From Eledone cirrhosa (Eukaryota), in assembly GCA_964016885.1 (NCBI GenBank), contig OZ024741.1, forward strand, positions 298,840,001 through 298,904,000: DNA of 64,000 bases. The letters run 5' to 3'. The notes beneath the pieces are model-generated. The model was given only the letters and a program-made list of their open reading frames with translations. It did no database searches and was not told the DNA's origin. This document shows, piece after piece, positions 4,951 through 58,190 of the stretch. Each line of letters opens with the position of its first letter. Position 1 is the stretch's first letter. Both the position numbers and the translations under genes were made by a program.

Positions 4951-5023
<73 letters not shown>

Positions 5024-5028
<5 letters not shown>

Positions 5029-5227
5029 AACAAGTATGACCCCGACGGCAGAGTTCAAGCCGTTTCGACGGCTATTTCTGGACTCTACTTCAGTCCAGAA
5101 ATAACCGTCGAAACGGCTTGAGCTCTACCGTCGGGGTCATACTTGTTCCTATTACCCACTCTACTACCCTAAGTATTGAGTACTTTGGTGCGTTATGGTC
5201 CATCTGGTTCCTTACCACAATTCCTTC

Positions 5228-5232
<5 letters not shown>
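5024..5232. mobile_element. Short fold-back element (61-bp arms, 7-bp spacer, ~80-bp unpaired tail) inserted in (TA)n; probably Penelope pLTR-derived
   Basis: 5024-5084 is the reverse complement of 5092-5152 with about 3 mismatches. (TA)n lies on both sides, and a second copy occurs at 25593-25758. Confidence 0.7.
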
Positions 5233-5325
<93 letters not shown>

Positions 5326-6265
5326 TATATACAATATATACATATATATATATACATAAGCAGCCATCATAGATTGTTGCCCAGTTCACCAATCCTTAAT
5401 GAAAATAATACTAAATTCCTTCCGTTGATATCAAGTACCTCTATACTCTGTCTCCAAACAACTATTCATAATTGCCCTTAATTTTACCAAATTAACAAAC
5501 ATAAAAGACTCAGAAATATAACTTATCCTACAGCCACGAAAAAAGAAAACATATTCAGGTAGCATTAAACAAAAACCAAACCTGTTCAATGTTACTTTTG
5601 GCACCAGTATGCGCAAAAATACTCTATGGAAATAAGTGATACCATCAAATTGTATGTAACACTTAATTTGAGTTTAAAATTTACCAAATTGAAAGGGCTT
5701 TCTATGTAAGCAACATAACCAGCAAGAAACTGTCAGATTACAAAAAGGTTACACCCATTCTCCATAGATATTTGCAACATAGAAATTAATGTTACCATTG
5801 TAACTTAAAATTTGAACACTTTCATATACTACGCATACTGTAAACAATTTATACCAAACAAACACATATTCTAACTACGCAAAGATAATTATTAATAATT
5901 TTACATAATCTAGTAGTGGATTCTCAGAGAAATTATTTTGAGAACTAGAACTACCAACAGAAATATGGAAAAGAAACACTACAATTCTAAGGACTTTGAA
6001 ATACTATTTGGTAAATTATCTCTACTCAACTGAGATTCACAGCGCATATCACGTAGAAAATTCAAACTCTTTTGATATTCTAAATCTTATTTATACCTCA
6101 ACAGGTCAACTCAGAGAGAATATATTTCAACACATAGTTTGAAAAATAACAAAATATGAAGAACTATTTGCAGCATAATCACCATATATTTCTCACTGAA
6201 ACTAGAACACTCGTATTCTTTATAATTATATTAATACCTAGAAATATATTATAACACATCTATGT

Positions 6266-7637: not shown

Positions 7638-7956
<319 letters not shown>

Positions 7957-8200
7957 AGTATGCATGTATACGTACATACATATATGTATACAGACGTACA
8001 GTAGCATGCACATATATATATATATATATACATATATATATACATATGCATACAGGTACACATACATATATGCACGTATCAGTTTAGCGGCGCTTATTAT
8101 AACGTCGCTTTGTTCGTTTGTAAACAAACTGAACAGCCTGAATTTATGCCATACGGTGTTAAGGCAACCACGTCACCTTTTTGTTCAACACTGACACAGG

Positions 8201-8245
8201 AACGATGTACTAGTTTCAAGCTTGTTAGCTATCATCAGCACCGTT
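8201..8245 (-). ncRNA. Minimal type I hammerhead ribozyme, copy 1 of 7
   Basis: Minus strand: AACGGUG-CUGAUGA-U AGC UAACAA GCU U-GAAA-C UA G-UA-CAUCGUU. Stem I is 7 bp with one G-U, both core boxes are intact, stem III is the palindrome ACUAGU, and the cleavage triplet is GUA. Confidence 0.88.
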
Positions 8246-8674
8246 TACCCATCTGCCAGATAGTTGAACGTTCGAAAGTATATACTTTCCTTATGAAAAT
8301 TAACGGCTGAGCAGCCTAATTTGCATATTGAGTGAGTTAAATCGGTCAGGCATACCGAAAACGATAAATTGAAACAAAATGAAAACGAAATTTCATTTCT
8401 CACTCTTAGTATGGCACTTACTTAAATGTAAGTATGCATGTATACGTACATACATATATGTATACAGACGTACAGTAGCATGCACATATATATATATATA
8501 TATACATATATATATACATATGCATACAGGTACACATACATATATGCACGTATCAGTTTAGCGGCGCTTATTATAACGTCGCTTTGTTCGTTTGTAAACA
8601 AACTGAACAGCCTGAATTTATGCCATACGGTGTTAAGGCAACCACGTCACCTTTTTGTTCAACACTGACACAGG

Positions 8675-8719
8675 AACGATGTACTAGTTTCAAGCTTGTT
8701 AGCTATCATCAGCACCGTT
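8675..8719 (-). ncRNA. Minimal hammerhead ribozyme, copy 2
   Basis: Identical to 8201-8245. Confidence 0.88.
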
Positions 8720-9148
8720 TACCCATCTGCCAGATAGTTGAACGTTCGAAAGTATATACTTTCCTTATGAAAATTAACGGCTGAGCAGCCTAATTTGCAT
8801 ATTGAGTGAGTTAAATCGGTCAGGCATACCGAAAACGATAAATTGAAACAAAATGAAAACGAAATTTCATTTCTCACTCTTAGTATGGCACTTACTTAAA
8901 TGTAAGTATGCATGTATACGTACATACATATATGTATACAGACGTACAGTAGCATGCACATATATATATATATATATACATATATATATACATATGCATA
9001 CAGGTACACATACATATATGCACGTATCAGTTTAGCGGCGCTTATTATAACGTCGCTTTGTTCGTTTGTAAACAAACTGAACAGCCTGAATTTATGCCAT
9101 ACGGTGTTAAGGCAACCACGTCACCTTTTTGTTCAACACTGACACAGG

Positions 9149-9193
9149 AACGATGTACTAGTTTCAAGCTTGTTAGCTATCATCAGCACCGTT
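9149..9193 (-). ncRNA. Minimal hammerhead ribozyme, copy 3
   Basis: Identical to 8201-8245. Confidence 0.88.
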
Positions 9194-9622
9194 TACCCAT
9201 CTGCCAGATAGTTGAACGTTCGAAAGTATATACTTTCCTTATGAAAATTAACGGCTGAGCAGCCTAATTTGCATATTGAGTGAGTTAAATCGGTCAGGCA
9301 TACCGAAAACGATAAATTGAAACAAAATGAAAACGAAATTTCATTTCTCACTCTTAGTATGGCACTTACTTAAATGTAAGTATGCATGTATACGTACATA
9401 CATATATGTATACAGACGTACAGTAGCATGCACATATATATATATATATATACATATATATATACATATGCATACAGGTACACATACATATATGCACGTA
9501 TCAGTTTAGCGGCGCTTATTATAACGTCGCTTTGTTCGTTTGTAAACAAACTGAACAGCCTGAATTTATGCCATACGGTGTTAAGGCAACCACGTCACCT
9601 TTTTGTTCAACACTGACACAGG

Positions 9623-9667
9623 AACGATGTACTAGTTTCAAGCTTGTTAGCTATCATCAGCACCGTT
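9623..9667 (-). ncRNA. Minimal hammerhead ribozyme, copy 4
   Basis: Identical to 8201-8245. Confidence 0.88.
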
Positions 9668-10096
9668 TACCCATCTGCCAGATAGTTGAACGTTCGAAAG
9701 TATATACTTTCCTTATGAAAATTAACGGCTGAGCAGCCTAATTTGCATATTGAGTGAGTTAAATCGGTCAGGCATACCGAAAACGATAAATTGAAACAAA
9801 ATGAAAACGAAATTTCATTTCTCACTCTTAGTATGGCACTTACTTAAATGTAAGTATGCATGTATACGTACATACATATATGTATACAGACGTACAGTAG
9901 CATGCACATATATATATATATATATACATATATATATACATATGCATACAGGTACACATACATATATGCACGTATCAGTTTAGCGGCGCTTATTATAACG
10001 TCGCTTTGTTCGTTTGTAAACAAACTGAACAGCCTGAATTTATGCCATACGGTGTTAAGGCAACCACGTCACCTTTTTGTTCAACACTGACACAGG

Positions 10097-10141
10097 AACG
10101 ATGTACTAGTTTCAAGCTTGTTAGCTATCATCAGCACCGTT
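10097..10141 (-). ncRNA. Minimal hammerhead ribozyme, copy 5
   Basis: Identical to 8201-8245. Confidence 0.88.
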
Positions 10142-10572
10142 TACCCATCTGCCAGATAGTTGAACGTTCGAAAGTATATACTTTCCTTATGAAAATTAAC
10201 GGCTGAGCAGCCTAATTTGCATATTGAGTGAGTTAAATCGGTCAGGCATACCGAAAACGATAAATTGAAACAAAATGAAAACGAAATTTCATTTCTCACT
10301 CTTAGTATGGCACTTACTTAAATGTAAGTATGCATGTATACGTACATACATATATGTATACAGACGTACAGTAGCATGCACATATATATATATATATATA
10401 TACATATATATATACATATGCATACAGGTACACATACATATATGCACGTATCAGTTTAGCGGCGCTTATTATAACGTCGCTTTGTTCGTTTGTAAACAAA
10501 CTGAACAGCCTGAATTTATGCCATACGGTGTTAAGGCAACCACGTCACCTTTTTGTTCAACACTGACACAGG

Positions 10573-10617
10573 AACGATGTACTAGTTTCAAGCTTGTTAG
10601 CTATCATCAGCACCGTT
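10573..10617 (-). ncRNA. Minimal hammerhead ribozyme, copy 6
   Basis: Identical to 8201-8245. Confidence 0.88.
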
Positions 10618-11046
10618 TACCCATCTGCCAGATAGTTGAACGTTCGAAAGTATATACTTTCCTTATGAAAATTAACGGCTGAGCAGCCTAATTTGCATAT
10701 TGAGTGAGTTAAATCGGTCAGGCATACCGAAAACGATAAATTGAAACAAAATGAAAACGAAATTTCATTTCTCACTCTTAGTATGGCACTTACTTAAATG
10801 TAAGTATGCATGTATACGTACATACATATATGTATACAGACGTACAGTAGCATGCACATATATATATATATATATACATATATATATACATATGCATACA
10901 GGTACACATACATATATGCACGTATCAGTTTAGCGGCGCTTATTATAACGTCGCTTTGTTCGTTTGTAAACAAACTGAACAGCCTGAATTTATGCCATAC
11001 GGTGTTAAGGCAACCACGTCACCTTTTTGTTCAACACTGACACAGG

Positions 11047-11091
11047 AACGATGTACTAGTTTCAAGCTTGTTAGCTATCATCAGCACCGTT
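11047..11091 (-). ncRNA. Minimal hammerhead ribozyme, copy 7
   Basis: Identical to 8201-8245. Confidence 0.88.
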
Positions 11092-11319
11092 TACCCATCT
11101 GCCAGATAGTTGAACGTTCGAAAGTATATACTTTCCTTATGAAAATTAACGGCTGAGCAGCCTAATTTGCATATTGAGTGAGTTAAATCGGTCAGGCATA
11201 CCGAAAACGATAAATTGAAACAAAATGAAAACGAAATTTCATTTCTCACATTTCTTACATTTAAGTAAGTGCCATACTAAGAGTGAGAAATGAAATTTCG
11301 TTTTCATTTTGTTTCAATT

Positions 11320-11379
<60 letters not shown>

Positions 11380-13383: not shown

Positions 13384-13750
13384 ATATTTGGGGAGGGTCA
13401 TATTTCTGTCTTAATTACTGATTTTTAAATGTTGTGTTCGCTATACGGTCCCATATATTCGAAATATCCTGTTTCATATGTTTAATGTTTAATGGTTTTC
13501 TATTGTATAATCATTCGAATCTTGATTTCATTGTTTTTCAAGTTATATAATCAATTTTGCATGCTTTCAACTTCAACCCGTCTATCATCAACGTGATCAT
13601 AATATAAATCCTGTCTTTTACATTACATGAGAGACTTAGTGGTTAGGGTGTTTTGTTCACTATCGTAAGGTTATGAATCTTGTTCCTGACTGTGCGATGA
13701 GTACTTGTGAAATACATTTTATTTCACGTTGTTCCAGTTCACTCAACTAG

Positions 13751-15961: not shown

Positions 15962-16181
15962 CTGGGATAGACACATGTGCTGAGGTCGCTCGGTAAGTTT
16001 CGTTTAAATTTATCTGGAAATTGTGAACTGTAAACTTTCATTTTTGTACCATTTTGTAGAGGGACTGCCAGGTCAAACTTTGATCTGGTCAGTCTCTCAA
16101 AATATTCTACGCCTTTAGGCGAAATAGTGTTGTAAAAATTTAATCTTTCGAAAAATTTCGAAAAATCCTATTTTGATAAAA

Positions 16182-17959
16182 ATGGCTGAAGTATCTTCAC
16201 CAAAATTCGAAGGAGGAAAGGGAAAGATAAGCTTACAGCTTCCCCCTTCCACTGTCACAGTAGCAGAGGTCAAAAAGAAAGGTCAGCCAGAGGAAGGATT
16301 TTCTCCACCTGTTGACCGACAACTTGACGTTGCCATGGCAACAAACCAAAGAACCAGCGGCACCAGCAACAGCAACAACAACAACAACAACAATGCGACG
16401 GACGAAAACAACACCAATAACAATAACAACAACAACAAGACCAATAACTGTGATAACAACAACAATGATAACAACAACACCACCAACTACAACAGCAACA
16501 CAAACAAAAAAAATTTCTCCTTCGCCGAGACGGCAAGGAAAACCCTCGACTATCTGCCAGTAGATATAACCAAAGCGAAGGAGCTACTGGCAGATGCCAA
16601 AAAATATATAGTGTACGGGGAAAATGGTTCATTCACGGAACTAAAAAGCCAGAGACTCCTAAACACTGTCATGTTTAGGAAAATCTCGAATAAAAGCAAA
16701 AAACCAGCTCAACCATCACAGAGTGAGATAGAGCTGGTTTTAAAAGACGTCATGAAGGACATCACCTTCATTCAGAAGGATAGACTCTACGGGAGTCTAT
16801 CCATTCTCATGAAGGACAGAGACACAGCAGTGAAACTGTCCATCAAACCAATCACATCCACCGCATACACCTTCTACCCTACGTACATGGGTAGAAGAAC
16901 ACAAAAAATAAAAATCCACACAATCCTGCCGATTATGGACATATGGTGGGTTTTGACAGGTTTCCTGGATGATGACACGATGGTGTCCATGGGAAAGGCA
17001 TCGGGTGACGCGTTCAGTGGAACGAGCCTCGAACTTGTAGTTCAAATGAGGCCCGAAAGGATCGCCCAGATCCCTGAACGCGTCATACTGGACGATCAAA
17101 CTTTCATCAACATTACCGTTGAGGGTAGGCGGCCCTCGTGTTACCTCTGCGAACCAGAGGTCACCTGAGGGCTGTCTGTCCCCAACTTAATAAGAAAACC
17201 CCAATCCTGCCTACACCACCAACAACTGCACAACCAACACAATCACCACAACTACCACTACAAAAACAACCACCACAGCTCAAACCAAAACAAAACAATG
17301 TCCAACCCATCCCCCCCACTCAAAAAACAAAAACAATTTCCAAAACAACCGCACCGCAAACACAACCCGATAATATACCCCTCCCCTCCAACGCGGAAGA
17401 TGACCCCAGTTCGTCGTCAGACGAGGAGGAGCACTTCCACACAATCAAAAGAAAAAAAAGAAAACACACCTCAGACACACAAATGAAAACAACCCCTCCC
17501 CAAAACATAACACTGACACCAACACAAAAGAGCTCACAACAACAGCAAACGAAAAACACCACACAAAAACAAAAACATGCATACACATACATAAACACAA
17601 GAAACAAAAAACTGTTAAACATTGTGTACAACAACAATCTAATGAAAACCCAAGGGCCTAACTTCACCCAGGCAGGGGATTTCCCCCACCTCAAAATGAT
17701 TAAGGCCCCACAGGACACCTATAAAACTTTAAAAAACAACTTTAAAGAGGACGTGGGTCCCCCCTGCGTCGGGCCCATTAACCGCGTCCTCCTAAAAAAC
17801 TACCCCACCCCCTCCCCAAACACCCACACAACTCCAAAATCCCCAACCACACAACACACTGATGCCCCTACACCTCCACAAACCACCACCCCACCCAACA
17901 ACCCATCCTCCACCCTAATGGAAATTGTGCAGCCCGATACCAGGGACGCAGAGAGGTAA
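16182..17959 (+). pseudogene. LINE ORF1 (gag-like, CCHC knuckle), frameshifted near 17160
   Basis: ORFs 16173-17168 and 17138-17959 join through VEGRRPSCYLC / GHLRAVCP; contains an Asn-rich N-terminal tract and a Pro/Thr/Gln-rich linker. Confidence 0.85.
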
Positions 17960-17983
17960 GTGCCTTTTCTCTTCACCACCAAC

Positions 17984-20900
17984 ATGGCCATGCTAAGAGT
18001 AGGCTGTTTAAATGCGGGTGGCCTGGGCTCAACTTGGAAGCAAGCAATGCTTCTAAATGACCTCAGGTCACAACGTATAGATGTGATGGTTATTTGCGAG
18101 GCCCGGATCAGCAAGGTGCGACAGCTGGCCCACACCTTTGATGACTTTGAGATGCACGCATCTCTCTGTCAGCCCGGAGGTGGGGGTGGGGTTGTCGTTC
18201 TGCTGCAAAAATATCTGGGTCTCGCAACTCAGATGGTACATTTGGACCCGGAGGGTCGACTAGTGGTTCTGGACCTTGGCAATGGTAAAGGCGGAGCGTT
18301 TAGGTTGGTAGCCGCCTACGGCCCTTTCGGGTCAATGCGGCCGGACTTCTTCCATTGTCTGAAGACTTTTCTAGGGACGTCCCGCTCCTTGCTATTAGTG
18401 GGGGACTGGAATGGTATCCTAGATGCACGCTGGGACTACGTAGGGGCCTGTCCCGATAGAGAGGGGTGTAATAGCTTCAAAGGGTTAATCGGTCGATTTG
18501 ACCTGGCCGATAGATATCGAGTAGATTTTCCGACTGCGCCAACCTGGACTTGAGCAAATCGTAGCGGATCATCTAGGTCGTACCTAGATAGGTTCTTAGT
18601 TATAATTAAGGGTAAGGACTTTTTAAGTTGTCCAAAAATGCGCATGGTTGGCTATTCAGACCACAAGTTAGTGACCTGCATGGTCAACCTTCACAGAACT
18701 CATAGACAGGGACCCTGTTACTGGAAGCTCAACTTGTCCTTACCGGCAAGTAAGGCTTACAGGGACCGGATTAGCACTTTAGTTAAGGAGCGGTTGACGG
18801 GCGCCATCGTCAACAGCAGGTGGTGGGGATCTCTCAAAAGAGAGATTAGAGTATTCTCTATAGAATTTAGTAAGGAGTTAGCCTCAAATAGAAATAGGAA
18901 GGAAAGGGAGTTGGTAGATAGTGTAGAAGAGGCAATTAGAAGCGGCGACGTGGCCAGAGTGCTAGCGTCGAGAACGGCCCTGGGCCAGTTCTTCGACGCG
19001 AAACACGAAGGCTGCATCGTCCGAAGCAAAATACGTGCTCTGGGAAACGAGGGGACCAAAGCTGTTAGCTGGGCCCTCGTGACAGAAGCCAAAAGAGGGA
19101 GCAGATCCACTATCCGGTCTTTGCGAGACCAGGATGGACGGGTGATCCTTGAACCTAAGCAGATGTGCGAGGCTTTTCAAAAGCACTTTGCCGGATTGTT
19201 CGGAAGGGGCGGGGAGCCGGTTGGGGATGAGGACTTCGGTCTATACCTAGACGGCCTGCCGCGTCTCTCGGACAGGGAGGCGAAGTCCTGCGAGGAGCCG
19301 ATTTCAGCCGCTGAGATAGAGGACGTGCTGAGCCAATGCGGCAAACGCAAATCCCCGGGTCTCGATGGACTTCCATACGAACTATATCTAGCTATGCCGG
19401 ACTTGTTCCCCGATCTCCTCGAGGCGGTCTACTGCAACTGGCAACAGAACGGGAGAATTCCCTGTGCTGTGACCAAGGGCGTAGTCACGCTAGTGAGGAA
19501 GGACGAGCACAAGGGGGACGATATAAATAATTTCAGGCCCATAACTCTGCTAAATACAGAGTTACAGATTTTGGCCAAGGTGCTAGCAAAGAGGTTGGCG
19601 CTTGTCGTGGGTAACCTGGTGGGAGATGCGCAGTCATGTGCTATCCCGTCCAGGTCCATCCACGACAACCTCCACCTCATGCGATACATCATAGAGAGGG
19701 TTGGGAACGAACCCGGCTTTGGTGGGGCCCTGATCAACTTGGATCAATCTAAGGCATTCGATAGAGTCGACCATGGTTACCTGGATGCGGTGCTAGCGGC
19801 GGCAGGCTTCGGACCCGTTTTCAGGGGCTGGATCAATGCCATGCACAGCAGCCGCATCTGCTCTAGGGTCAAGGTGAACGGCTACCCCTCGGAGCCGTTC
19901 GAAATCGCGACAGGTGTGCCCTCTCTCCTCCCTTCTGTATGTAATGACTCTAGAGCCACTGCTGCGGAAGTTGGAGTTGTTGCAGGGCATCCCGTTGGAA
20001 CCGGGATTGTGGAAAGCGGTGTCAGCCTACGCCGATGACGTAACAGTAATGGTGTCGACGGCCTCGGAAATCGGGGCGATCGGCACCTTACTGGAGGAGT
20101 ACGAAAGGTTTACAGGGGCTAAGCTGAACCGGGACAATTCGATCGGTCTGCAACTCGGCACGTGGAGGGGCAGATCGATGCCCTCCGATGGCGTCGTCGG
20201 GCGCTGGACGGAGGGCCCGGTGAAGTTGCTCGGGGTCTGGTTCGGACCAGACCTCCAGGTGGAGAAGAACTGGGGTGAGGGAACGAACAGGGTGTTTGCA
20301 CTGACCCAGAAGTGGGCCGAGTGCAAACTGTCCCTGAAAGGTCGGGCGGAGGTGGCGAACACTTATATAGCGTCCGTCATCTACTACCGCCTGACCGTTG
20401 TGCCTTGCCCAATGGAAACGCTCGCCAAAATGGAGCGCGCACTCTTCCAATTCCTTTGGAAGAAGCGGGCTCCTATGGTGAGGAGATCCATCTGCTGTCA
20501 ACACCCTTCGAAAGGAGGGCTGGGGATGCCGTGGCTAATGATACGTAAACACGCATTAAGGTATTCCTCTCCGGTCAACCGGTGTGGGCCCCGTTTGTGA
20601 GGCGAGCCTTTCCCAGACTCGTCTCACTCACCGAGCTGCAATCCTGGGTCAAGCAAAGACCGAGAAAACTGGGCGCCTGGTACACCGAGTGTGCCCAGGC
20701 GCTCACGGCTCTCTGGCAGGAGGACCGGGCTGTCAGTGGAGAATCCACCTCGTCATTCTATAGAGGGCTGGTGGTTAGCAGGTGCGACGACGCCCTCGGA
20801 GAAGCCCTAGGCATGGAGGAAGACGAACTGGCCAACCTGTTCGGTAGGACATTCAGCCCGGGACCTATGGATAACTTCCAGAGGTCCCTGGCCTGGCAGT

Positions 20901-21395
20901 GCTACAGAAAGGCTCTGCCCGTTCGAAAAAGGCTTTACAGACACGGGCGCCCGGGTAGGGACCCCTCAAAAAAGATCTGTCCCAGATGCGTGTGCGACGA
21001 GGAAACCGTTGCACACGTAATTGGTACACTCCTCGGGCATTGCCAATCTGTGGGGCTATGTCGAACAACTGCTGTCAAAGGTGGGACCGATCCGGTTGAC
21101 CACTGAGTCTATTGTAACGATCAAGCCGCCTCCCCTCTTCAAAAACGAAGGAGAGGTGGTGTTTCTGTGCGTAATAGCCATGGCGAAAGAGGTTGTATGG
21201 TGGACGCGTCTGAAAGGACTGAGGTCAGACACCTTTCTCTCTGGCCAACAACTGGTCCGTTACTTCCGATATCATTTCGGAAGAAGGATCAGGATGGAGA
21301 GAGAGGTGCTGCACCCCAGCCGTTTTTATGAAAGATGGGTGAAAGTGGCGAGAATGGCCCGTGTGAATGGGCCTGCACTCTACATCAGACTATAG
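17984..21395 (+). pseudogene. LINE ORF2 (APE endonuclease - reverse transcriptase - Cys motif) with one stop and about 3 frameshifts
   Basis: Motifs CLNAGGL, GDWN, YSDH, KSPGLDGLPYE, FRPITLLN, LDQSKAFDRVDH, AYADD and CPRC..ETV.H. In-frame TGA at 18551-18553; frameshifts near 19914, 20580 and 21020. Confidence 0.92.
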
Positions 21396-31180: not shown

Positions 31181-32911
31181 ATGGCTACGAAAAAGAATTT
31201 TCATAGGTCACTCCCACTCATTCCGTCTTCTTCTTCCTCAATCGTCACTATAGCAGAGAGAAGATTGTCTCTCTCCCTCCCTTCTTTAAATGTGTCTCTC
31301 TCCCTCTCTTCTCTTTCGCAAGCGACGACAGAAAAGAAAAGTCTCGTGCAAAGCGTGCAAGATTTCTCCACGAGAAGATGGTGACAAAAACTGGACACCG
31401 AGCAATCTGCAAGGCAGCGGAAAAATGTTTCGAAACCCAACAGCACTGTACGGTCACGTACCGTACAGCAAGTCCAAAATCCCGTAGGGTTGAAAGAGCC
31501 ACAGAGGCTCAAATACAAAAAGCCTTGGGGTCTGTGTGGCAGCGGAAAACGCACATCACCCGAGGCAAGAAATATGCCACCGTAGACGTACATTTTGCCA
31601 CACACCAGGAGGCAAAGGCTCAATCCGTAGTGACCCTAAGGATCGAGGAAATGGTGTTGGTGCCCTCCTACTGCGGGAAAAAAATTGTGAGGGTCAAACT
31701 GACCCCCCCCCCCCGGGATGGCCCCTTCTTGGCTGGCCGCGTCTGTCCTCGTCGGAATCGAGGACAAAACAACTGTACTGCAAGTACAGAAAACAGTAAG
31801 AGAAGATTGGGTCGGCACCTCCATTGACGTGTTAATCCAAACCAACCAGGAGTGCATCGAAGCTATCCCGGATGTGATAGACTTCGATAACGGCACTCAA
31901 CTGCCCATAAGTGTTGAGGGCAAACGCCCGAAATGCTTTCGCTGTGGATCGAAGACTCACCTCAGGGCCTTCTGCAACGAGAAGGCCCTGAGAAAGGAGA
32001 AAACCCCCCTCCTTCCGAAACCGGCTCCATCGCTACCAACAACAGGACAAGCGGCAACCAGGAACGATAGGTCCGTGGCACCCATACCCACGCCACGGAA
32101 ATAAAAAACAGCAGCAGCAGTGGAAGTATTAACAACAACAACAGCAATACCAAATGCAGCTGCAACAGAGACTCCAGTGCAAACATCACCAACAACAACA
32201 AGTGAAAGAGTGGAGCTGGTACCCCTCCCCGACCTCACAGAATCAGACATGGAGTGTGAGGTGGGAGAGGGATGGCAAAAGGTCGTAAGAAGGCACAAAC
32301 GCAGAAGCAGCGCATCGTCGCCTTTGAAAAGGGAGGAAAGAAATGAAAAAAGGGTAAAGTCTACTGCAAAGAGACTCACAGCAGCAACACCACCAACACC
32401 ATCACCACCCACACTAGCACCACCAACACCACCGGCGACAACCCCACCGCCAACAACACCTTCAACACCACCACCACAAGCACCAACATCGCAAACACAA
32501 CAACAAAACACACACACCCAGCAACAACGACAAGAAAATAGTAGAACCACACCCCACCCCCAGAAAAACAAATGCACGGCAATAAATACACACAAGAAAC
32601 TAATGACTTACATAATTGAACACACAGACATTTCACAACACGACTACATAATACCAGCACCAATCAAAACGCCAACTAACATAAGAATGCTAAAAATAGC
32701 ACAGAAACAATACACAAACATTAAAACGAAATTCCCCAACGCAGTTGGTGATTTCAGAGACCTAGGAGGAACTATCAACCGAAGAGTATATTCGGACATA
32801 CTCATAGAAGAGCCGACGACCACCCGAAGGGACGATTCAACGGTCCCTTCACCAGACGATCAAGTGAAAAGGAATGGAAAAACCATCCCTCCTCTACGAA
32901 AAGTACGGTAA
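31181..32911 (+). pseudogene. LINE ORF1 (CCHC knuckle), disrupted
   Basis: VEGKRPKCFRCGSKTHLRAFC, homologous to family A ORF1; broken near 31380, at the C-run near 31710, and at 32104. Confidence 0.85.
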
Positions 32912-32946
32912 GTGGTCTTTCCCATCTTTTCCACTCTATTTTAAAC

Positions 32947-35900
32947 ATGACCTCACTCAGAATAGGCAGCATAAATGCGCGTGGCTTGGGGTCGTCGTGG
33001 AAGCAGGGTCACCTGCTCAACGACCTCAGGTCACTAAACATAGATGTAGTGGCCATCAGCGAGACCAGAATCTCCGAAGCACGGGCCTTCGCACCGATCT
33101 TCGGCGGCTACGATGTGTACGCATCTCCCAGCCGTCCTGGATCGGGGGGAGGAGTTGCTGTGCTTTTTCGGAGAGGTTTGGATTTCGCCATACGGGCCAT
33201 CTTCCTGGACCCAGAGGGTAAGTTGGTGGTGCTGGACCTGACCAGCGGAGACGGGCAAGCTTTCAGGCTAGTGGCCGTCTATGCCCCGACAGGAGCAGGG
33301 CGGCCTGATTTCTTCCGGCGTCTGGAGACCTTTCTTGGAACGTCCCGCTCTTTAGTGTTAGTGGGCGACTGTAACGGGATCTTAGATGCACGCTGGGACT
33401 GTGTGGGATTAGCGGATAGAGGTGGAGGGTGCAAGAGCCTCACCAACCTGCTCAGGCGTTTTGAACTGTCTGACAGGTACCGATTGGATTTCCCGAATGT
33501 GCCAATGTGGACTTGGACAAATCGCATAGGGTCATCCAGATCATATCTAGATAGAGTATTTTGTAGGGAAATAGATAGGTCTAGCATAGGCTGTCCACAA
33601 TTCAAGATAGTCAGCTACACGGACCACAAATTCGTGATCTGTGTGCTTGACTTAGATAGGCTTCATAGACGAGGACCCGGCTACAGGAAGCTAAACGCGT
33701 CCTTACCAGCGCGCAAGGCCTACAGAGACCGGATTAGAGAACTAGTTAAGCGGGCGTTGACGGAGGCCATCGTTAACAACAAGTGGTGGTTTTCTCTGAA
33801 AAGAGCGATTAGAATAGAATCGATTAGGTTTAGTAAGGCTTTAGCAATAGAGAAAAATAGAGCAGAAGGAGAACTAGTTATAAAATTAGACGAGGCGCTT
33901 AGCAAAGGCATTGCGACCGACGTGCTTGCGGCTAAATTGGCCCTTGACCAATTCTTCAATGCAAAGCACGAAGGCTGCGTTGTCGAAGCAAGGGTGCGTG
34001 CTCTCAGACACGAGGGGACGAAAGCCGTTCAATGGGCCCGAGTGGCGGAGGCGCGTCGTGGCAACAAAGCCACGATCCGGTCTTTGGTGGACCACGACGG
34101 GCGCATGCTACTCGATCCCGGGCAAATGTGTGAATCTTTTCAGCGACACTTCGCTCAGCTGTTCGGGGGCAGCGGTGGGCCGGGTCGAGGGATGGACTTT
34201 AGTGTCTACCTCGACGGACTGCCGCGGCTCTCGGCCACTGAGGCGAAGTGTTGCGAAAAGCCGATAACAGCCGCTGAAGTAAGGGAGGCAATGACTGGCT
34301 GCACAAGGGGTAAATCGACTGGTTTGGATGGTCTGCCCTATGAACTTTACGTACATATGCCAGACTTGTTCGGAAGCGCTCTTGGCGGACGTCTACTGCA
34401 ACTGGCAACAGAACGGGAGAATTCCCAGTTCTGTGAGCCGAGGAGCGGTGGCACTGCTGAGAAAGGATCCGACCAAGGGGGATAACATAGATAATTTCCG
34501 GCCCATAACTCTGCTAAACACAGAGTTCAAGATTTTGGCCAAGGTGCTAGCAAAGAGGTTGGCGCTTGTCGTTGGTGGTCTGGTGGGAGAGGCGCAGACA
34601 TGCGCCATTCCCGACAGATCCATCCACGACAACCTCCACCTCATGCTATACATCGTAGAGAGGGTAGCTAGGGAACCTGGAACGGGTGGGTCCTTGATCA
34701 ATTTAGATCAGTCGAAAGCTTTCGATAGGGTCGACCATCGTTACCTAGCGGCAGTCCTGAGGGCGGCTGGCTTTGGGCCCGCCTTCAGAGGCTGGATCGC
34801 TGCCATGCACAGCGACATCTGCTCTGTGGTGAGAGTGAACGGTCACCTGTCGGAACCGTTCAACATCATGCGCTCGGTCCGCCAAGGATATCCCCTCTCG
34901 TCCCTCTTGTACGTATTGACTCTAGAGCCATTACTGCACAAACTGGAGACGTTGAGGGGCGTCCCGCGCGAACAAGGATGCGGAAGATCCGTGTCAGCAT
35001 ATGCGGACGATGTCACCGTAGTGGTGTCGAACGCCAAACACATCGAGGCGATCGGCACTACACTAAGAGAATACGAAGCGGTGACAGGAGCAATGATCAA
35101 CCAGGAAAAGTCAGTGAGCCTGCAGCTCGGCACCTGGAGAGGCAGGTCCATGCGTCCAACAGCGTCGTCGGACGCTGGACGGACGGACCGGTTAAATTGC
35201 TAGGGGTGTGGTTCGGTCCGGACCTCCAGACGGACAAAAACTGGGACGAGGTGACGAGCAGGGTGGCTTCTCTCACCCAGAAATGGGTGGAGAGGAAGCT
35301 ATCCCTGAAAGGTCGAGCGGAGGTGGCTAACGCGTACATCGCGTCCGTCATCTGCTACCGCCTGACCGCCGTACCTTGTCCTAAGCCTCGCCTGACTGCG
35401 CTGGAGCGTTTGCTCTTTCGCTTTTTGTGGAAGGGACGCGCTCCGATGGTCAGGCGGTCCATCTGTTGTCAACACCAGCTACGTGGAGGGCTGGGCATGC
35501 CGTGGCTGATGATGCGCAAGCACGCGCTCAGGCTACGACAACTCCACCTCTTCCTCGACGGTGATCAGGTGTGGTCGCCGTTTGCTAGACACGTATTTCC
35601 CCAGCTCGTTTCCTTGACGGAGCTGCAGTCCTGGGTCAAGCGAAGACCGAGAGGGAGCGCCTGGATATTGGAATGTCTTCAGGCACTCACAGCCCTCGAC
35701 CAATCGGGCAATGTGATCGGTGGAAACTCCACCTCGGCGTTCTATAGAGGATTAGTGGAGGGGAAGAGCGACGACGTACTTGGGGAAACTCTAGGCGTCG
35801 ACGAAAATCAACTAGCCAATCTCTTCGGAAGAACTTTCGGGCCAGGGCCTATGGACAACTTCCAGAAATCTCTGGCCTGGCAGTGCTACCGAGGAGCCTT

Positions 35901-36366
35901 GCCAGTTCGGGATAAACTCTACAGGCATGGAGGTGCCGTCAGCCGAGCATGTCCGAGATGCGCACAGGGCGACGAAACCGTCCTGCACGCACTCGTCCAG
36001 TGTCCGAAAATTGCTGACTTGTGGGTTTATGTCGAACACCTGCTGTTGCGTGTAGGACGGATCCGGCTATCATCTGAGTCCATCGTGAGGATTGCCCCGC
36101 CCTCCTCCTTTAGCCGGGAAGGGCAGGCAGTTTTTATCTGTCTGGTGGCCATGGCGAAAGAGATAGTATGGTGGACACGTTTGAAAGGGCTGAAGACGAG
36201 CACTTACCTCTTCGGTGATGCTCTGATTGACTTTTTCAAATTTCATTTGAAAAGGAAAATCAGAGTAGAGAGGGAAGTGCTCTCTTCCCAGCATTTTGTT
36301 GAAAGATGGGTGAGAGAAGCAAGAATGACCCGAGTGAATGGGCCTACTCTGAGTATATATCTGTAA
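32947..36366 (+). pseudogene. LINE ORF2 (APE-RT-CCHC), two frameshifts
   Basis: SINARGL, ISETR, VYAP, YLDR, TDH, FRPITLLN, DQSKAFDRVDH, VRQGYPLS, AYADD, CPRC.QGDETVLHALVQC; frameshifts near 34380 and 35155. Confidence 0.93.
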
Positions 36367-53600: not shown

Positions 53601-54768
53601 TGGTATTTATTCTGGTGCTTAATATTCTGAGTTCAAATACAGTCTACATCAATGTTATCGTTCGTCCCTCCGGGGCCCGATAAAATAATACCAGTCTCGT
53701 ACTGGTTGATATACTCAACATTTTCCATCCTTCTAAATTTGCTGGCCCTATGCCTAAAGTACAAATCAATATTTTTGTCAAATCGGTTAGGTTCAGATCA
53801 TACGAGAATGTTTGAGGTATTCATAGTATAGTAAATACCTTCTTTTTAAGTACCTCCCGCAGCTGGAGTCGTGTTTAGTTTTTGAATTATAAATTAACAC
53901 ATCCCTATAGTATATGTAAACTACAGACATCACTTGCAATCTATAATTACTTGATAGTAAGTACTATGCTTTCGCTGATGTCTTTATAGTCACGAATAGA
54001 CATATAAACACTCGATCCTTAATTCAGTAGAACATCAAATATGTGACAGAGAAGGTGATACAAGAATATTCTCTATTGGTCCCGAAACGAAATCAAAGAT
54101 GACCTCGGAGCGATTTGAACTCAAAGTGCACACACTATGAACACATATCCATCTTTCTAACGACCAAACCGACCGCCTACACACTATTCATACGTACATA
54201 TATGCATACATGCATACATACATACATATATATATACATACTTACATACTTACATACATACATGCATACATGCATACATGCATTTCAGAAATTCAGCATG
54301 TAATAACTGCATATTCACATATATCGACAAAGAAAAAAGTGGAACTGTACACATGTAACTCAACGCATACAGCGCCACACATGCAATAACATCCATACCT
54401 ACACACACACATACACACAAATACATACAGACATACGTATTTAGCTAGTTGATATCTAAATTCCAAGGAAAGAGTCTTGTTTTTATTTAGAAATCGACTC
54501 TTTCTCTTGGAGGAGATTTATGAAATAATAAAACCAGAGTTATATATATATATTTCGTTTCTGAATTTGTTTAGCAAGATTCTTTATCTGAAATCGTGTG
54601 TTGAAACCGATATTGTTATACTTTGGGAGGGTCATGTTGCCAATAAGAAACACACGCACCAGTTGCTTTCACTTCAATTTAATTTAATATATATTTATAA
54701 ATTTACAAATTTATAAATTTCTGGTTGGTTGGTTGGTTCCACAACCAGATAGTTGTTTATATATATAT

Positions 54769-54813
54769 AGTCATAGTTCTTTCGTCACACACTCTGTGAC
54801 CTCTTCAGTGACT
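54769..54813 (-). ncRNA. Mirror copy of the pLTR hammerhead
   Basis: Reverse complement of 56598-56642. Confidence 0.8.
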
Positions 54814-55109
54814 GGGGATTTCTTTCTTCGTTTCTGTGCCTTTCCTTTCTTCTATCCTACGCCATTTTGTTTGTGTGTGGGTTGCGTGCTCAGTTTGCGC
54901 ATGCGCCACATCCGGGTGTCTGTGTGTGTTTGTGTTCATTTTTCTATTTTTCTATTTATATTTGTTTGTTTATTTATTTATTTATTGTTGGTTGGTTGTT
55001 TGTTCTATGTGTGTGTGTGTTTTCATTTTGTCTTGTGTGTGTTTTCATTTTGTGTGTGTTTTCAATTGTAAGTTGTTTATATATGTGTGTGTGTGTTTTC
55101 ATTTTGTCC

Positions 55110-55775
55110 TTAATTGTAAGTTGTGATGTTGCTGTTCCACTCATATTTTCTATTTAATTTTGGTTTTAATTCTTTTATGCTTACTGCCTCTGTAATTTGC
55201 CTAAACATTGCGTCTTTCTTGTGTGTGGATTCTATTTTTATTTCTATGCTCTCTAATTTACCCCTGTGTTCTATCTTAGCATGTTGGTAGAGCACAGATG
55301 ATTCTTTACTATCTTGGAGGTCTCGCCAGTGTTCATTTATTCGTTCCCCTATACTACGAGCTGTCTCACCTATGTACACTATATTTTTGTTTCTACATTG
55401 TCCCTCAGTACATCTTATGCTATATACTACATTTCTAGTTTTACAGTTAATATGGGGGCTTATTTTACAGGTTATACATTTCTTATCTATACATGAGGGT
55501 CTTTGGAACGGGTATGTCTTGCTAATAAGTGTTTTTACGGAGGTACCAGGTCTTTCTACTATCTTAATATTGAGATTATGTTTCTTTAGGGCCCTTCTAA
55601 ATTTGTAGGCTAGTTCACCTCTAGGGGTTGTATTGATGAACATTACACTCTGGTATTTATTGCTATCATACCATGAGTTTATTCTATTGGCCTTGTTCTT
55701 AGAAAGAACTAAGAACAAGGCCAATAGAATAAACTCATGGTATGATAGCAATAAATACCAGAGTGTAATGTTCAT
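55110..55775 (-). CDS. Mirror copy of the GIY-YIG ORF
   Basis: Identical translation except for the 3 residues across the spacer. Confidence 0.75.
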   Translation of the reverse strand: MNITLWYLLLSYHEFILLALFLVLSKNKANRINSWYDSNKYQSVMFINTTPRGELAYKFRRALKKHNLNIKIVERPGTSVKTLISKTYPFQRPSCIDKKCITCKISPHINCKTRNVVYSIRCTEGQCRNKNIVYIGETARSIGERINEHWRDLQDSKESSVLYQHAKIEHRGKLESIEIKIESTHKKDAMFRQITEAVSIKELKPKLNRKYEWNSNITTYN

Positions 55776-56301
55776 CAATACAACCCCTAGAGGTGAACTA
55801 GCCTACAAATTTAGAAGGGCCCTAAAGAAACATAATCTCAATATTAAGATAGTAGAAAGACCTGGTACCTCCGTAAAAACACTTATTAGCAAGACATACC
55901 CGTTCCAAAGACCCTCATGTATAGATAAGAAATGTATAACCTGTAAAATAAGCCCCCATATTAACTGTAAAACTAGAAATGTAGTATATAGCATAAGATG
56001 TACTGAGGGACAATGTAGAAACAAAAATATAGTGTACATAGGTGAGACAGCTCGTAGTATAGGGGAACGAATAAATGAACACTGGCGAGACCTCCAAGAT
56101 AGTAAAGAATCATCTGTGCTCTACCAACATGCTAAGATAGAACACAGGGGTAAATTAGAGAGCATAGAAATAAAAATAGAATCCACACACAAGAAAGACG
56201 CAATGTTTAGGCAAATTACAGAGGCAGTAAGCATAAAAGAATTAAAACCAAAATTAAATAGAAAATATGAGTGGAACAGCAACATCACAACTTACAATTA
56301 A
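55636..56301 (+). CDS. GIY-YIG endonuclease domain of a Penelope-like element (5'-truncated, no RT; N-terminus supplied by the inverted arm)
   Basis: Cys-rich linker C.DKKC.TC....NC, then NVVYSIRC..C....YIGETARSIGERINEH, followed by H, RQITEA and LN motifs. Expression is not shown. Confidence 0.8.
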   Translation: MNITLWYLLLSYHEFILLALFLERTKNKANRINSWYDSNKYQSVMFINTTPRGELAYKFRRALKKHNLNIKIVERPGTSVKTLISKTYPFQRPSCIDKKCITCKISPHINCKTRNVVYSIRCTEGQCRNKNIVYIGETARSIGERINEHWRDLQDSKESSVLYQHAKIEHRGKLESIEIKIESTHKKDAMFRQITEAVSIKELKPKLNRKYEWNSNITTYN

Positions 56302-56597
56302 GGACAAAATGAAAACACACACACACATATATAAACAACTTACAATTGAAAACACACACAAAATGAAAACACACACAAGACAAAATGAAAACACACACAC
56401 ACATAGAACAAACAACCAACCAACAATAAATAAATAAATAAACAAACAAATATAAATAGAAAAATAGAAAAATGAACACAAACACACACAGACACCCGGA
56501 TGTGGCGCATGCGCAAACTGAGCACGCAACCCACACACAAACAAAATGGCGTAGGATAGAAGAAAGGAAAGGCACAGAAACGAAGAAAGAAATCCCC

Positions 56598-56642
56598 AGT
56601 CACTGAAGAGGTCACAGAGTGTGTGACGAAAGAACTATGACT
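56598..56642 (+). ncRNA. Minimal type I hammerhead in the Penelope pLTR
   Basis: AGUCA-CUGAAGA-G GUCACA GAGUG UGUGAC-GAAA-G AA C-UA-UGACU; cleavage triplet CUA. Confidence 0.8.
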
Positions 56643-56793
56643 ATATATATATAAACAACTATCTGGTTGTGGAACCAACCAACCAACCAGAAATTTATAA
56701 ATTTGTAAATTTATAAATATATATTAAATTAAATTGAAGTGAAAGCAACTGGTGCGTGTGTTTCTTATTGGCAACATGACCCTCCCAAAGTAT

Positions 56794-56842
<49 letters not shown>

Positions 56843-57090
56843 TTTTATTAAGGCTCAGTACTGAGTCTTGTTATTTATTATTCGGGAGTTTCGCCTGACT
56901 ATCATAGGGTCATCAGACTCTTCTTCGGTACTCTTTTCTCTCAGCCATCAACCACATACGGATACATACATACATACATACATATACGGTTGTCCTTCCT
57001 GTTCCTATAACCATGCAAATCCCGAGCTGAAGATCCGCTAAGGTGAAACAATTGTTCTCGGTATGGTGAACTAACTGTTGTTTAACCACT

Positions 57091-57124
<34 letters not shown>

Positions 57125-57702
57125 ATAAAAAAGAATTTCGCTCTACATGGCTGAAAACAATAAATGTAATCTGAGTTTTTCGAATATTAATAATAACATT
57201 CGATTCGTTTGCAAACAATTGCTTGTTTGCAAAATTGTAAACGAATCGAAGAAAAACTCAGATTACATTTATTGTATTCAGCCATGTAGAGCGAAATTTT
57301 CTTTTTTATTTGAATTTGGCAAAGCCGGCCATTTGTTGCTCGTATACAGGAAACTGACTGGCCAGTCTGCTGATATGCAAATCTGGCTGATCAGTGGATC
57401 TGCTAATATGCAGATCTGACTGATCAGCCAATCTGCTAATGTGCAAATCAGGCCAATCAGTCACTATATTTTTGAAAAGAGCATATATTTTCACTAGCTC
57501 TGACAGTTTGGCAGGTGAACAGTGAGCTGTACTGATGAAGGGTGATGCCCAGAAACATTAGTGTCTGTAGTTGTGTTCGCATGCCAACATAAGAGCAAGA
57601 ATGAAGCGTTCATTCTCCTGACATGACTATAAAATTGAGGCTTGTTTGCAAAATTGCAAACGAATCGAATGTTATTATTAATATTCGAAAAACTTAGATT
57701 AT
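57125..57702 (+). mobile_element. Non-coding Penelope-like pLTR element with a terminal direct repeat and an inverted 5' copy, in (TA)n
   Basis: 57222-57250 recurs at 57641-57669. 57125-57212 is inverted relative to 57235-57310 and 57654-57702. Contains a hammerhead and ~33-bp internal repeats. Confidence 0.75.
57525..57572 (+). ncRNA. Type I hammerhead ribozyme with a wobble-rich stem I
   Basis: AGCUGUA-CUGAUGA-A GGGU GAU GCCC A-GAAA-CA UUAG UG-UC-UGUAGUU; cleavage triplet GUC. Confidence 0.72.
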
Positions 57703-57751
57703 ATATATATATATATATACTGTATATATATATATACTGTATATATATATA

Positions 57752-58190
57752 TGAAAATTAGAATTGGTGCTCTGAAATAGCGATATATATATGAATGTTT
57801 ATATAGTGTGTTTTGCAATACACTGCATGCTTAATTAAAAGCATTTTGAAGACATTACGCTATTGTTTTAAAGTAGTGACTAGGTCACTTACTTCTTTTT
57901 TCAACAAACAAAGGGAGGGACCGGAAACCGCTCTGTATAATCAGTTCCTGATTATTACTGGAATTCTATAAGAATCCAACATTCATAATTTTCAACAAAC
58001 AAGGGGAGTGCTAAGCTCTGAGGAATACCAACAGTATGAAACAGAGATCTGTCAGCTTATCTCCTCTGTTTGTTGAAAAAAGAAGTAAGTGACATAGTCA
58101 CTACTTTAAAACAATAACTTAAGGTCTTGAAAATGCTGTTAATTAAGCATACAGTGTATTGCAAAATACACTATATATACATTCATATAT
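57752..58190 (+). mobile_element. Fold-back Penelope-like pLTR element in (TA)n
   Basis: Diverged inverted arms at ~57785-57916 and ~58060-58190, with a hammerhead between them. Confidence 0.75.
58012..58059 (+). ncRNA. Type I hammerhead ribozyme with intact canonical pairing
   Basis: UAAGCU-CUGAGGA-AUAC CAACA GUAU-GAAA-CAGA GA UCUG-UC-AGCUUA; all three stems are Watson-Crick and the triplet is GUC. Confidence 0.88.

Follow-up and report, generated by a model that had tools for sequence, protein, structure and literature searches.

The analysed window is a 64,000-nucleotide stretch of the Eledone cirrhosa genome, and all positions below are counted from its first letter. It contains a tandem array bordered at both outer ends by (TA)n tracts, located at 7898–7951 on the left and at 11323–11376 on the right, in keeping with the earlier view of a (TA)n insertion site. 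The long arm of the array (7952–11249, minus strand) comprises 6.95 tandem units with starts at 7952, 8426, 8900, 9374, 9848, 10322, and 10798, and TRF reports a period of 474 with 7.0 copies. The sequence-only reading had counted seven near-identical units of about 474 bp. This description is accurate for units 1–5, which are identical at 474 bp, and for unit 6, which measures 476 bp through one additional dinucleotide, while the seventh unit is partial, being identical over its 452 bp and ending at 11249. The unit has a GC content of approximately 35% and includes a degenerate TA/CA microsatellite stretch (7952–8079, minus strand), which is present in each unit and is the main source of length variation among copies. 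When units are numbered on the ribozyme strand, with cleavage following position 156, the RNA-sense 3' end of the long arm at 7952 corresponds to monomer position 412 and its 5' end at 11249 to position 435. The array had been taken to extend to 11322, but its tandem part stops at 11249. The remaining sequence consists of a 4-nt joint at the head-to-head junction of the arms (11250–11253) and a short inverted arm of 69 bp on the plus strand (11254–11322), covering monomer positions 406–474. A 62-nt "tail" (11261–11322, plus strand) separates the short and long 3' ends and has no counterpart at the other end of the insertion. In agreement with the reported absence of coding capacity, the array overlaps no stop-to-stop frame of at least 150 aa.

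The count of seven units would be wrong if a perfect repeat had been collapsed or expanded during assembly. The units are identical, the 3.3-kb array is longer than short reads, and none of the contigs checked from four runs of unrecorded kind spans it; one of these runs, X1, which may come from the source sample, has the unique left flank and contains the family in very many contigs. However, unit 6 differs in length from the others, and many loci carry cleanly ending arrays of between 2 and 15 units whose variants distinguish one unit from another. An assembly error is thus considered very improbable, and it would alter the unit count only, leaving the family unaffected. The adjacent segment at 7735–7900 is a short two-armed fragment of a different high-copy repeat, truncated within a hammerhead-like motif. 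The array occupies the (TA)n at the 3' end of this fragment, and a related motif is found at locus L069.

Each of the seven units carries a type I hammerhead motif on the minus strand (8201–8245, 8675–8719, 9149–9193, 9623–9667, 10097–10141, 10573–10617, and 11047–11091). The motif comprises a 7-bp stem I, the CUGAUGA box, a U-U pair, a 3-bp stem II, the GAAA box, a palindromic ACUAGU, and a GUA site, and it was absent from all 5000 dinucleotide shuffles of the non-microsatellite part of the unit (scan criteria: core boxes, stem I of at least 6 bp, and stem II of at least 3 bp). The complete hammerhead proposed from the sequence is therefore confirmed as a motif in every unit, and the cut in the first unit is predicted from it to lie between 8208 and 8207, as originally placed. 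The Rfam comparison proposed as a check fell below threshold: nothing reached the gathering score, and the best hammerhead model, HH9, gave 18.5 bits (E 0.16) against a cut-off of 52. The U-U pair closing stem II, previously suspected of impairing cleavage, is no obstacle in principle, since the axolotl HHR_Amex2 is described as having one and still cleaving, by 22% in an hour for the monomer and more efficiently for the dimer (PMC7229834). The G10.1–C11.1 closing pair given for the metazoan minimal hammerhead of Penelope-like elements (PLEs) (PMC4209133) is absent here, with the U-U pair in its place. A coding PLE family of the same genome (L064 and L075) has the combination of a U-U pair and a 3-bp stem II in its terminal repeat as well.

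The palindromic stem III region is predicted to form a 6-bp intermolecular duplex of −6.8 kcal/mol. Such a dimer mode via the palindrome was described by Cervera and de la Pena in 2014, with low activity in vitro (PMC4209133). In the predicted minimum-energy fold, part of the core is base-paired and the inner pairs of stem I are weak (probabilities of 0.18–0.28), and the monomeric active fold would contain a 2-nt loop. Stem I is extended by two more helices. In ten copies from about three subfamilies, 96.9% of the cells of an 80-pair structure, built from the same alignment used for scoring it, are able to pair, and pairing falls to 29–40% in slid controls. Two-sided changes occur at 6 of the 80 pairs, including a G-U to U-G change in stem I, a level matched by 11 of 500 shuffles. 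As only about three subfamilies were sampled, the covariation reflects few independent events, and it provides support for, rather than proof of, a conserved RNA fold. Predicted folding of the monomer exceeds that of shuffles with a z of −9.5, to which the TA/CA tract contributes much. In the Xenopus retrozymes, eight of nine dimers are reported to show no cleavage in vitro (bioRxiv 10.64898/2026.07.22.740005), and ribozyme activity is accordingly not to be assumed here. The ribozyme most likely cleaves weakly, either by dimerisation via the ACUAGU palindrome or with the assistance of a protein.

A pattern search of the 3.0-Gb genome yielded 10,581 occurrences of the exact 34-nt ribozyme core and 8,633 of the pattern of a sister subfamily, whose units of about 422 bp are approximately 80% identical, while the reversed control patterns gave 0 matches. 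Across the family, the unit length is 420–540 bp with one hammerhead per unit, and each arm contains from less than one to 15 units. Among the matches listed, the first 100 of the 10,581 young cores group into about 53 insertions, from which the young subfamily is estimated at roughly 5,000 to 6,000 insertions. The expectation of dispersed copies with varying unit number is borne out by both sets of cores and by arms of 1 to 15 units. The term "satellite" is misleading, as the array in the window is one among several thousand scattered insertions. It represents the youngest haplotype, with no substitutions between units, and is one fresh insertion of a very abundant, protein-less mobile repeat, with unusually clear traces of the way it was inserted. 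Its non-coding nature, its dispersal, and the hammerhead in every tandem unit are consistent with the proposed kind, a non-LTR retrozyme.

The ends of the insertions follow a defined pattern. Copies end at position 412 (short) or 474 (long), 62 nt apart, and continue into (AT)n; these 3' ends map inside the unit, at 256 and 318 nt downstream of the cleavage site and not at that site itself. The 5' ends are scattered across the unit. A script identified 54 head-to-head arm pairs in 100 loci, of which 52 were drawn from the young-core pattern, 18 from the sister pattern, and 30 from the cleavage-site truncation pattern. With ends from 455 onward accepted as long, the last bases being variable, all 33 classifiable pairs combine one long and one short end, and none has two ends alike. 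The probability of this outcome under independent choice is below 1e-9. The other 21 of the 54 pairs could not be classified by the script. Four of them, read by eye, obey the rule (L120, L133, L087, and L149), and in those inspected among the remainder, one end is cut off or interrupted by another insertion. The rule is also kept at the window locus, where 7952 is the short end and 11322 the long end. The 50 single-armed copies include 22 long, 10 short, and 18 unclassified ends. The inter-arm junctions mostly show an overlap or a gap of a few bases, and the junction in L020 lies on a palindrome. We infer that they represent two cDNAs, primed outward from two nicks and joined centrally. Long and short ends also occur in another non-coding family (L001, L024, L077, L109, and L148), whose very short arms meet at a palindrome.

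The same arrangement is found in coding PLEs of this genome: all eight two-armed Hydra-type copies with both ends visible keep the long-short rule, as does a GIY-YIG PLE fragment within the window (54550–56801), which has perfect arms of 1093 bp and a 60-nt tail on the left only. This fragment is the 3' part of a coding PLE (GIY-YIG, Pfam E 1e-4). It carries a type I hammerhead of its own (near 56603 and near 54808), and another 3' end from its family lies at 13399 on the minus strand. The window also contains a cluster of hammerhead-like motifs in other non-coding repeats at 56850–57760 (around 56916 on the minus strand, and 57027 and 57532 on the plus strand), as well as broken retrotransposons at 32105–36366 and 16128–21106, with LINE endonuclease, RT, and zinc-binding domains at 32752–36366 and RT matches at 18554–20600.

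Features of this type have been described for PLEs. Craig et al. report 5' truncation, an adjacent inverted copy, a tail of 30–40 bp at one end, and (TA)n targeting (PMC8557442), and Arkhipova et al. place the tail on one of the inverted repeats (PMC3846280). Frangieh et al. trace the tail to two internal start sites used by the RT in vitro, the sequence between them being the tail; they also report nicking and extension of both DNA strands, a protein predicted to be dimeric, and ribozyme cleavage that depends on protein but is not needed in vitro (PMC11167929). The ends, the inverted arm, and the (TA)n target of the present family together read as the PLE "tail" signature. MITEs can likewise have inverted terminal arms and TA targets, and a DNA-level element of the MITE or Helitron type, with internal tandem repeats and an incidental hammerhead, would share this resemblance. 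Such an element is hardly credible here: arm length ranges between 56 nt and several kb, the inner ends of the arms are ragged and the outer ends unequal, many copies are single-armed, the hammerhead occurs far above chance, and stem I covaries.

The array is very probably a non-autonomous PLE, that is, a non-LTR retrozyme, and the retrozyme hallmarks examined in the DNA are all present. The Penelope-like RT that had been invoked as the mover appears most likely, given the end structure, the (TA)n target, and the coding PLEs with like ends. In the proposed mechanism, the hammerhead strand would be transcribed into an RNA longer than one unit, and a PLE RT-endonuclease supplied in trans would nick (TA)n on both strands. 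Reverse transcription would start internally on the RNA from each nick, using the long site in one case and the short site in the other, and the resulting cDNAs would then be joined through their 3' ends via a few shared or added bases. At the window locus, one cDNA of 3298 nt across seven ribozymes and another of 69 nt would have been produced.

Because one cDNA ran through seven ribozymes, the template would have had intact ribozyme sites, either uncut or re-ligated. The search for 5' ends at the cleavage site gave 213 pattern matches, with true truncation in 6 of the 30 inspected. A control position gave 278 matches, of which 29 of the 100 listed had a non-reference start, an upper estimate made by eye and without flanks. 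Since copies with a 5' end at the cleavage site are rare, cut linear monomers do not usually serve as the template; either circles or uncut multimers would be compatible with this rarity. In the unique 282 nt of the unit, copies differ by 0.83% within an arm (115 pairs; median 0%) and by a mean of 1.2% between the arms of one insertion (63 pairs), compared with 3.8% between loci (990 pairs). Some variants, confined to a single locus among those sampled, run through all units in L014, L150, and L121, and through both arms in the latter two. Among the rare variants covered by both arms, 26 of 147 are present in both, and the remainder fits later mutation. These comparisons indicate that each insertion derives from one source.

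At such a locus, an uncleaved multimer has about an even chance of having been the template. A ribozyme-made circle is the next candidate and a more tentative one; along this route, dimeric hammerheads would cut the transcript into 474-nt monomers, which would be circularised and copied repeatedly by the PLE RT. The seven identical units and the median difference of 0% within arms are compatible with this route, and the private variants found in every unit of L014, L150, and L121 require a bottleneck of a single unit at some point. The free passage of cDNAs across the cleavage sites, the predicted monomer fold relative to shuffles, to which the TA/CA tract contributes much, and the circles demonstrated for other retrozymes (PMC7229834) point in the same direction. 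However, in L245 one variant is shared by unit 3 of the minus arm and units 4 and 7 of the plus arm, with similar cases in L247 and L244, and a monomer circle would need later conversion to generate this distribution. Such sharing of unit-specific variants between arms was absent from 11 other two-armed loci, bar one site in L120. Moreover, anole PLE ribozyme mutants are reported to insert normally, with unprocessed RNA as the chief substrate (PMC11167929), and a young homogeneous donor array would also yield identical units.

The identical units had been explained by rolling-circle copying, but they do not single out a circle, as arrays also grow in DNA. L248 contains five A-B dimers with about 11 differing sites and an opposite arm unlike either unit, and L249 contains two alternating units with 14 differences. 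Since these older arrays show amplification of dimers at the DNA level, identity of units is no proof of rolling-circle copying. On this basis, the PLE machinery might insert one or two units, after which unequal crossing-over or slippage would enlarge the array as a minisatellite, with the ribozyme uninvolved; local amplification of such a type is discussed in bioRxiv 10.64898/2026.07.22.740005. This expansion in DNA accounts for length only and not for the fixed ends or the long-short rule. The two example arrays are old and belong to the sister subfamily, whereas the array in the window is of the youngest haplotype and free of substitutions, and we regard this course as unlikely at such a locus. 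The A-B-A-B arrays were also considered as products of dimer circles with one crippled ribozyme, but were not accepted as proof of such circles: the opposite arm in L248 matches neither A nor B, and 11–14 differences per unit make one ribozyme mutation expected by chance. These A-B-A-B arrays of the sister subfamily offer a small model for the birth of satellite higher-order repeats within a mobile element.

PLEs with RT and GIY-YIG frames are present in the same genome, including a Hydra-type frame of 809 aa. The search of 113 PLE loci (best 150 of up to 71,890 candidates scored) revealed no coding PLE with a homologous terminal repeat; the only homologous repeats at these loci belong to neighbouring or chimeric retrozyme copies. 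The best candidate for the mobiliser, at a little less than even likelihood, is a young Hydra-clade PLE of this genome. This element is abundant (L246:1340–4870 and L214–L243): at least 19 copies share an identical stretch of 87 aa, and the 809-aa frame is located in L246. Stem II of its hammerhead is long, and its tail measures about 85 nt. Pfam did not recognise the 809-aa frame, and the Hydra-type assignment is based on a CxCX5C linker, a DKT motif, the absence of CCHH, insertion into (TA)n, and a weak PLE RT match. At least two further Hydra-type families are present (L151 and L153). The shape of the retrozyme ribozyme is nearer to that of a Neptune-type family of the same genome.

Two chimeric insertions point towards this Hydra-type family as the partner. 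In L112, the arm with the short end starts in the retrozyme and runs on into Hydra coding sequence, and the opposite arm is Hydra with a long end. Conversely, the short-end arm in L115 starts in that same Hydra family and runs on into the retrozyme, and the opposite arm is retrozyme with a long end. Both loci keep the long-short rule. The Hydra parts are 98.8% (L112) and 92.9% (L115) identical to L246, and the retrozyme copy in L115 is older. In 31 of the 50 single-armed copies, the 5' joint lacks a TA tract, and about eight of these abut another PLE-type sequence directly. Other chimeric junctions (L023, L128, L146, L201, L208, L105, and L126) were rejected as a means of naming the partner. 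Because several families are involved, two long ends are paired in L146, and L201 contains an old, broken coding fragment, these junctions are attributed to deletions at the 5' joint that reach into older neighbouring sequence. L112 and L115 are open to the same objection: a later insertion with a 5'-joint deletion would produce their appearance one time in four, and L146 and L201 resemble just such events. It is conceivable, albeit on balance doubtful, that the PLE enzyme acts as an asymmetric pair at each two-armed insertion, in which one subunit would use the long start and the other the short start, differing RNAs could be exchanged, and the Hydra-clade PLE would move the retrozyme. If true, the genome itself would directly identify the enzyme responsible for moving a retrozyme, and the restriction of the tail to one end would be explained.

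The family is a new one within an already described class. A 2026 preprint by Li, Clavereau and Pollet treats animal retrozymes as non-autonomous PLEs, on the basis of co-occurrence and terminal-repeat phylogeny (bioRxiv 10.64898/2026.07.22.740005). Our literature search, which covered largely open-access papers and their main texts, listed no paper that describes this family or counts long-short pairs; the family could already be included in a repeat catalogue, and the rule may appear in older PLE papers. The present analysis adds evidence from the insertion signature on a retrozyme, namely the tail, the inverted arm, and the (TA)n target, together with a strict rule of one long and one short end common to the retrozyme and the coding PLEs of the same genome. 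It also makes available a 474-nt template, with its start sites mapped, for asking how the tandem and inverted structures of PLEs form, and this template bears equally on the purpose of the hammerhead and on whether circles are real templates of transposition.

Among the known systems, newt satellite 2 is likewise a tandem repeat with a weak palindromic stem III and expected dimer cleavage; it is a vertebrate repeat of about 330 bp, and the likeness is one of description only (PMC7229834). MRC1 and other non-autonomous Chlamys PLEs of Chlamydomonas are also non-autonomous and form multicopy head-to-tail insertions, but their 3' ends resemble those of autonomous partners, and most Chlamys elements are described as lacking canonical hammerheads (PMC8557442). 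The metazoan non-LTR retrozymes share with the present family non-coding tandem units, a type I hammerhead in each unit, a GC content below 50%, thousands of copies, and coexisting PLEs (PMC7229834; bioRxiv 10.64898/2026.07.22.740005), and the axolotl HHR_Amex2 retrozyme shares the U-U pair at the base of stem II (PMC7229834). The unit of 474 bp lies at the upper end of the 150–450 bp range given by Cervera and de la Pena in 2020 (PMC7229834); the range in the preprint is 51–972 bp (bioRxiv 10.64898/2026.07.22.740005). Tails and inverted arms are the rule in the present family, whereas a word search of the main texts of both retrozyme papers gave no hit for "tail" and no more than one for "inverted", in the title of a reference, and neither feature is mentioned there. 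RNA and cleavage have been demonstrated for the known retrozymes (PMC7229834; bioRxiv 10.64898/2026.07.22.740005), while the present family is known through its genomic copies. Compared with the endonuclease-bearing PLEs of the Hydra, Neptune, and Poseidon clades, the family contains no ORF, the entire element is the repeat, and no homologous coding parent was found among the 113 PLE loci; its tail is 62 nt, against 30–40 nt in described PLEs (PMC8557442). With these elements it shares 5' truncation, a partial-tandem and inverted structure, a tail at one end, (TA)n targeting, and a hammerhead upstream of the 3' ends (PMC8557442, PMC3846280, PMC11167929).
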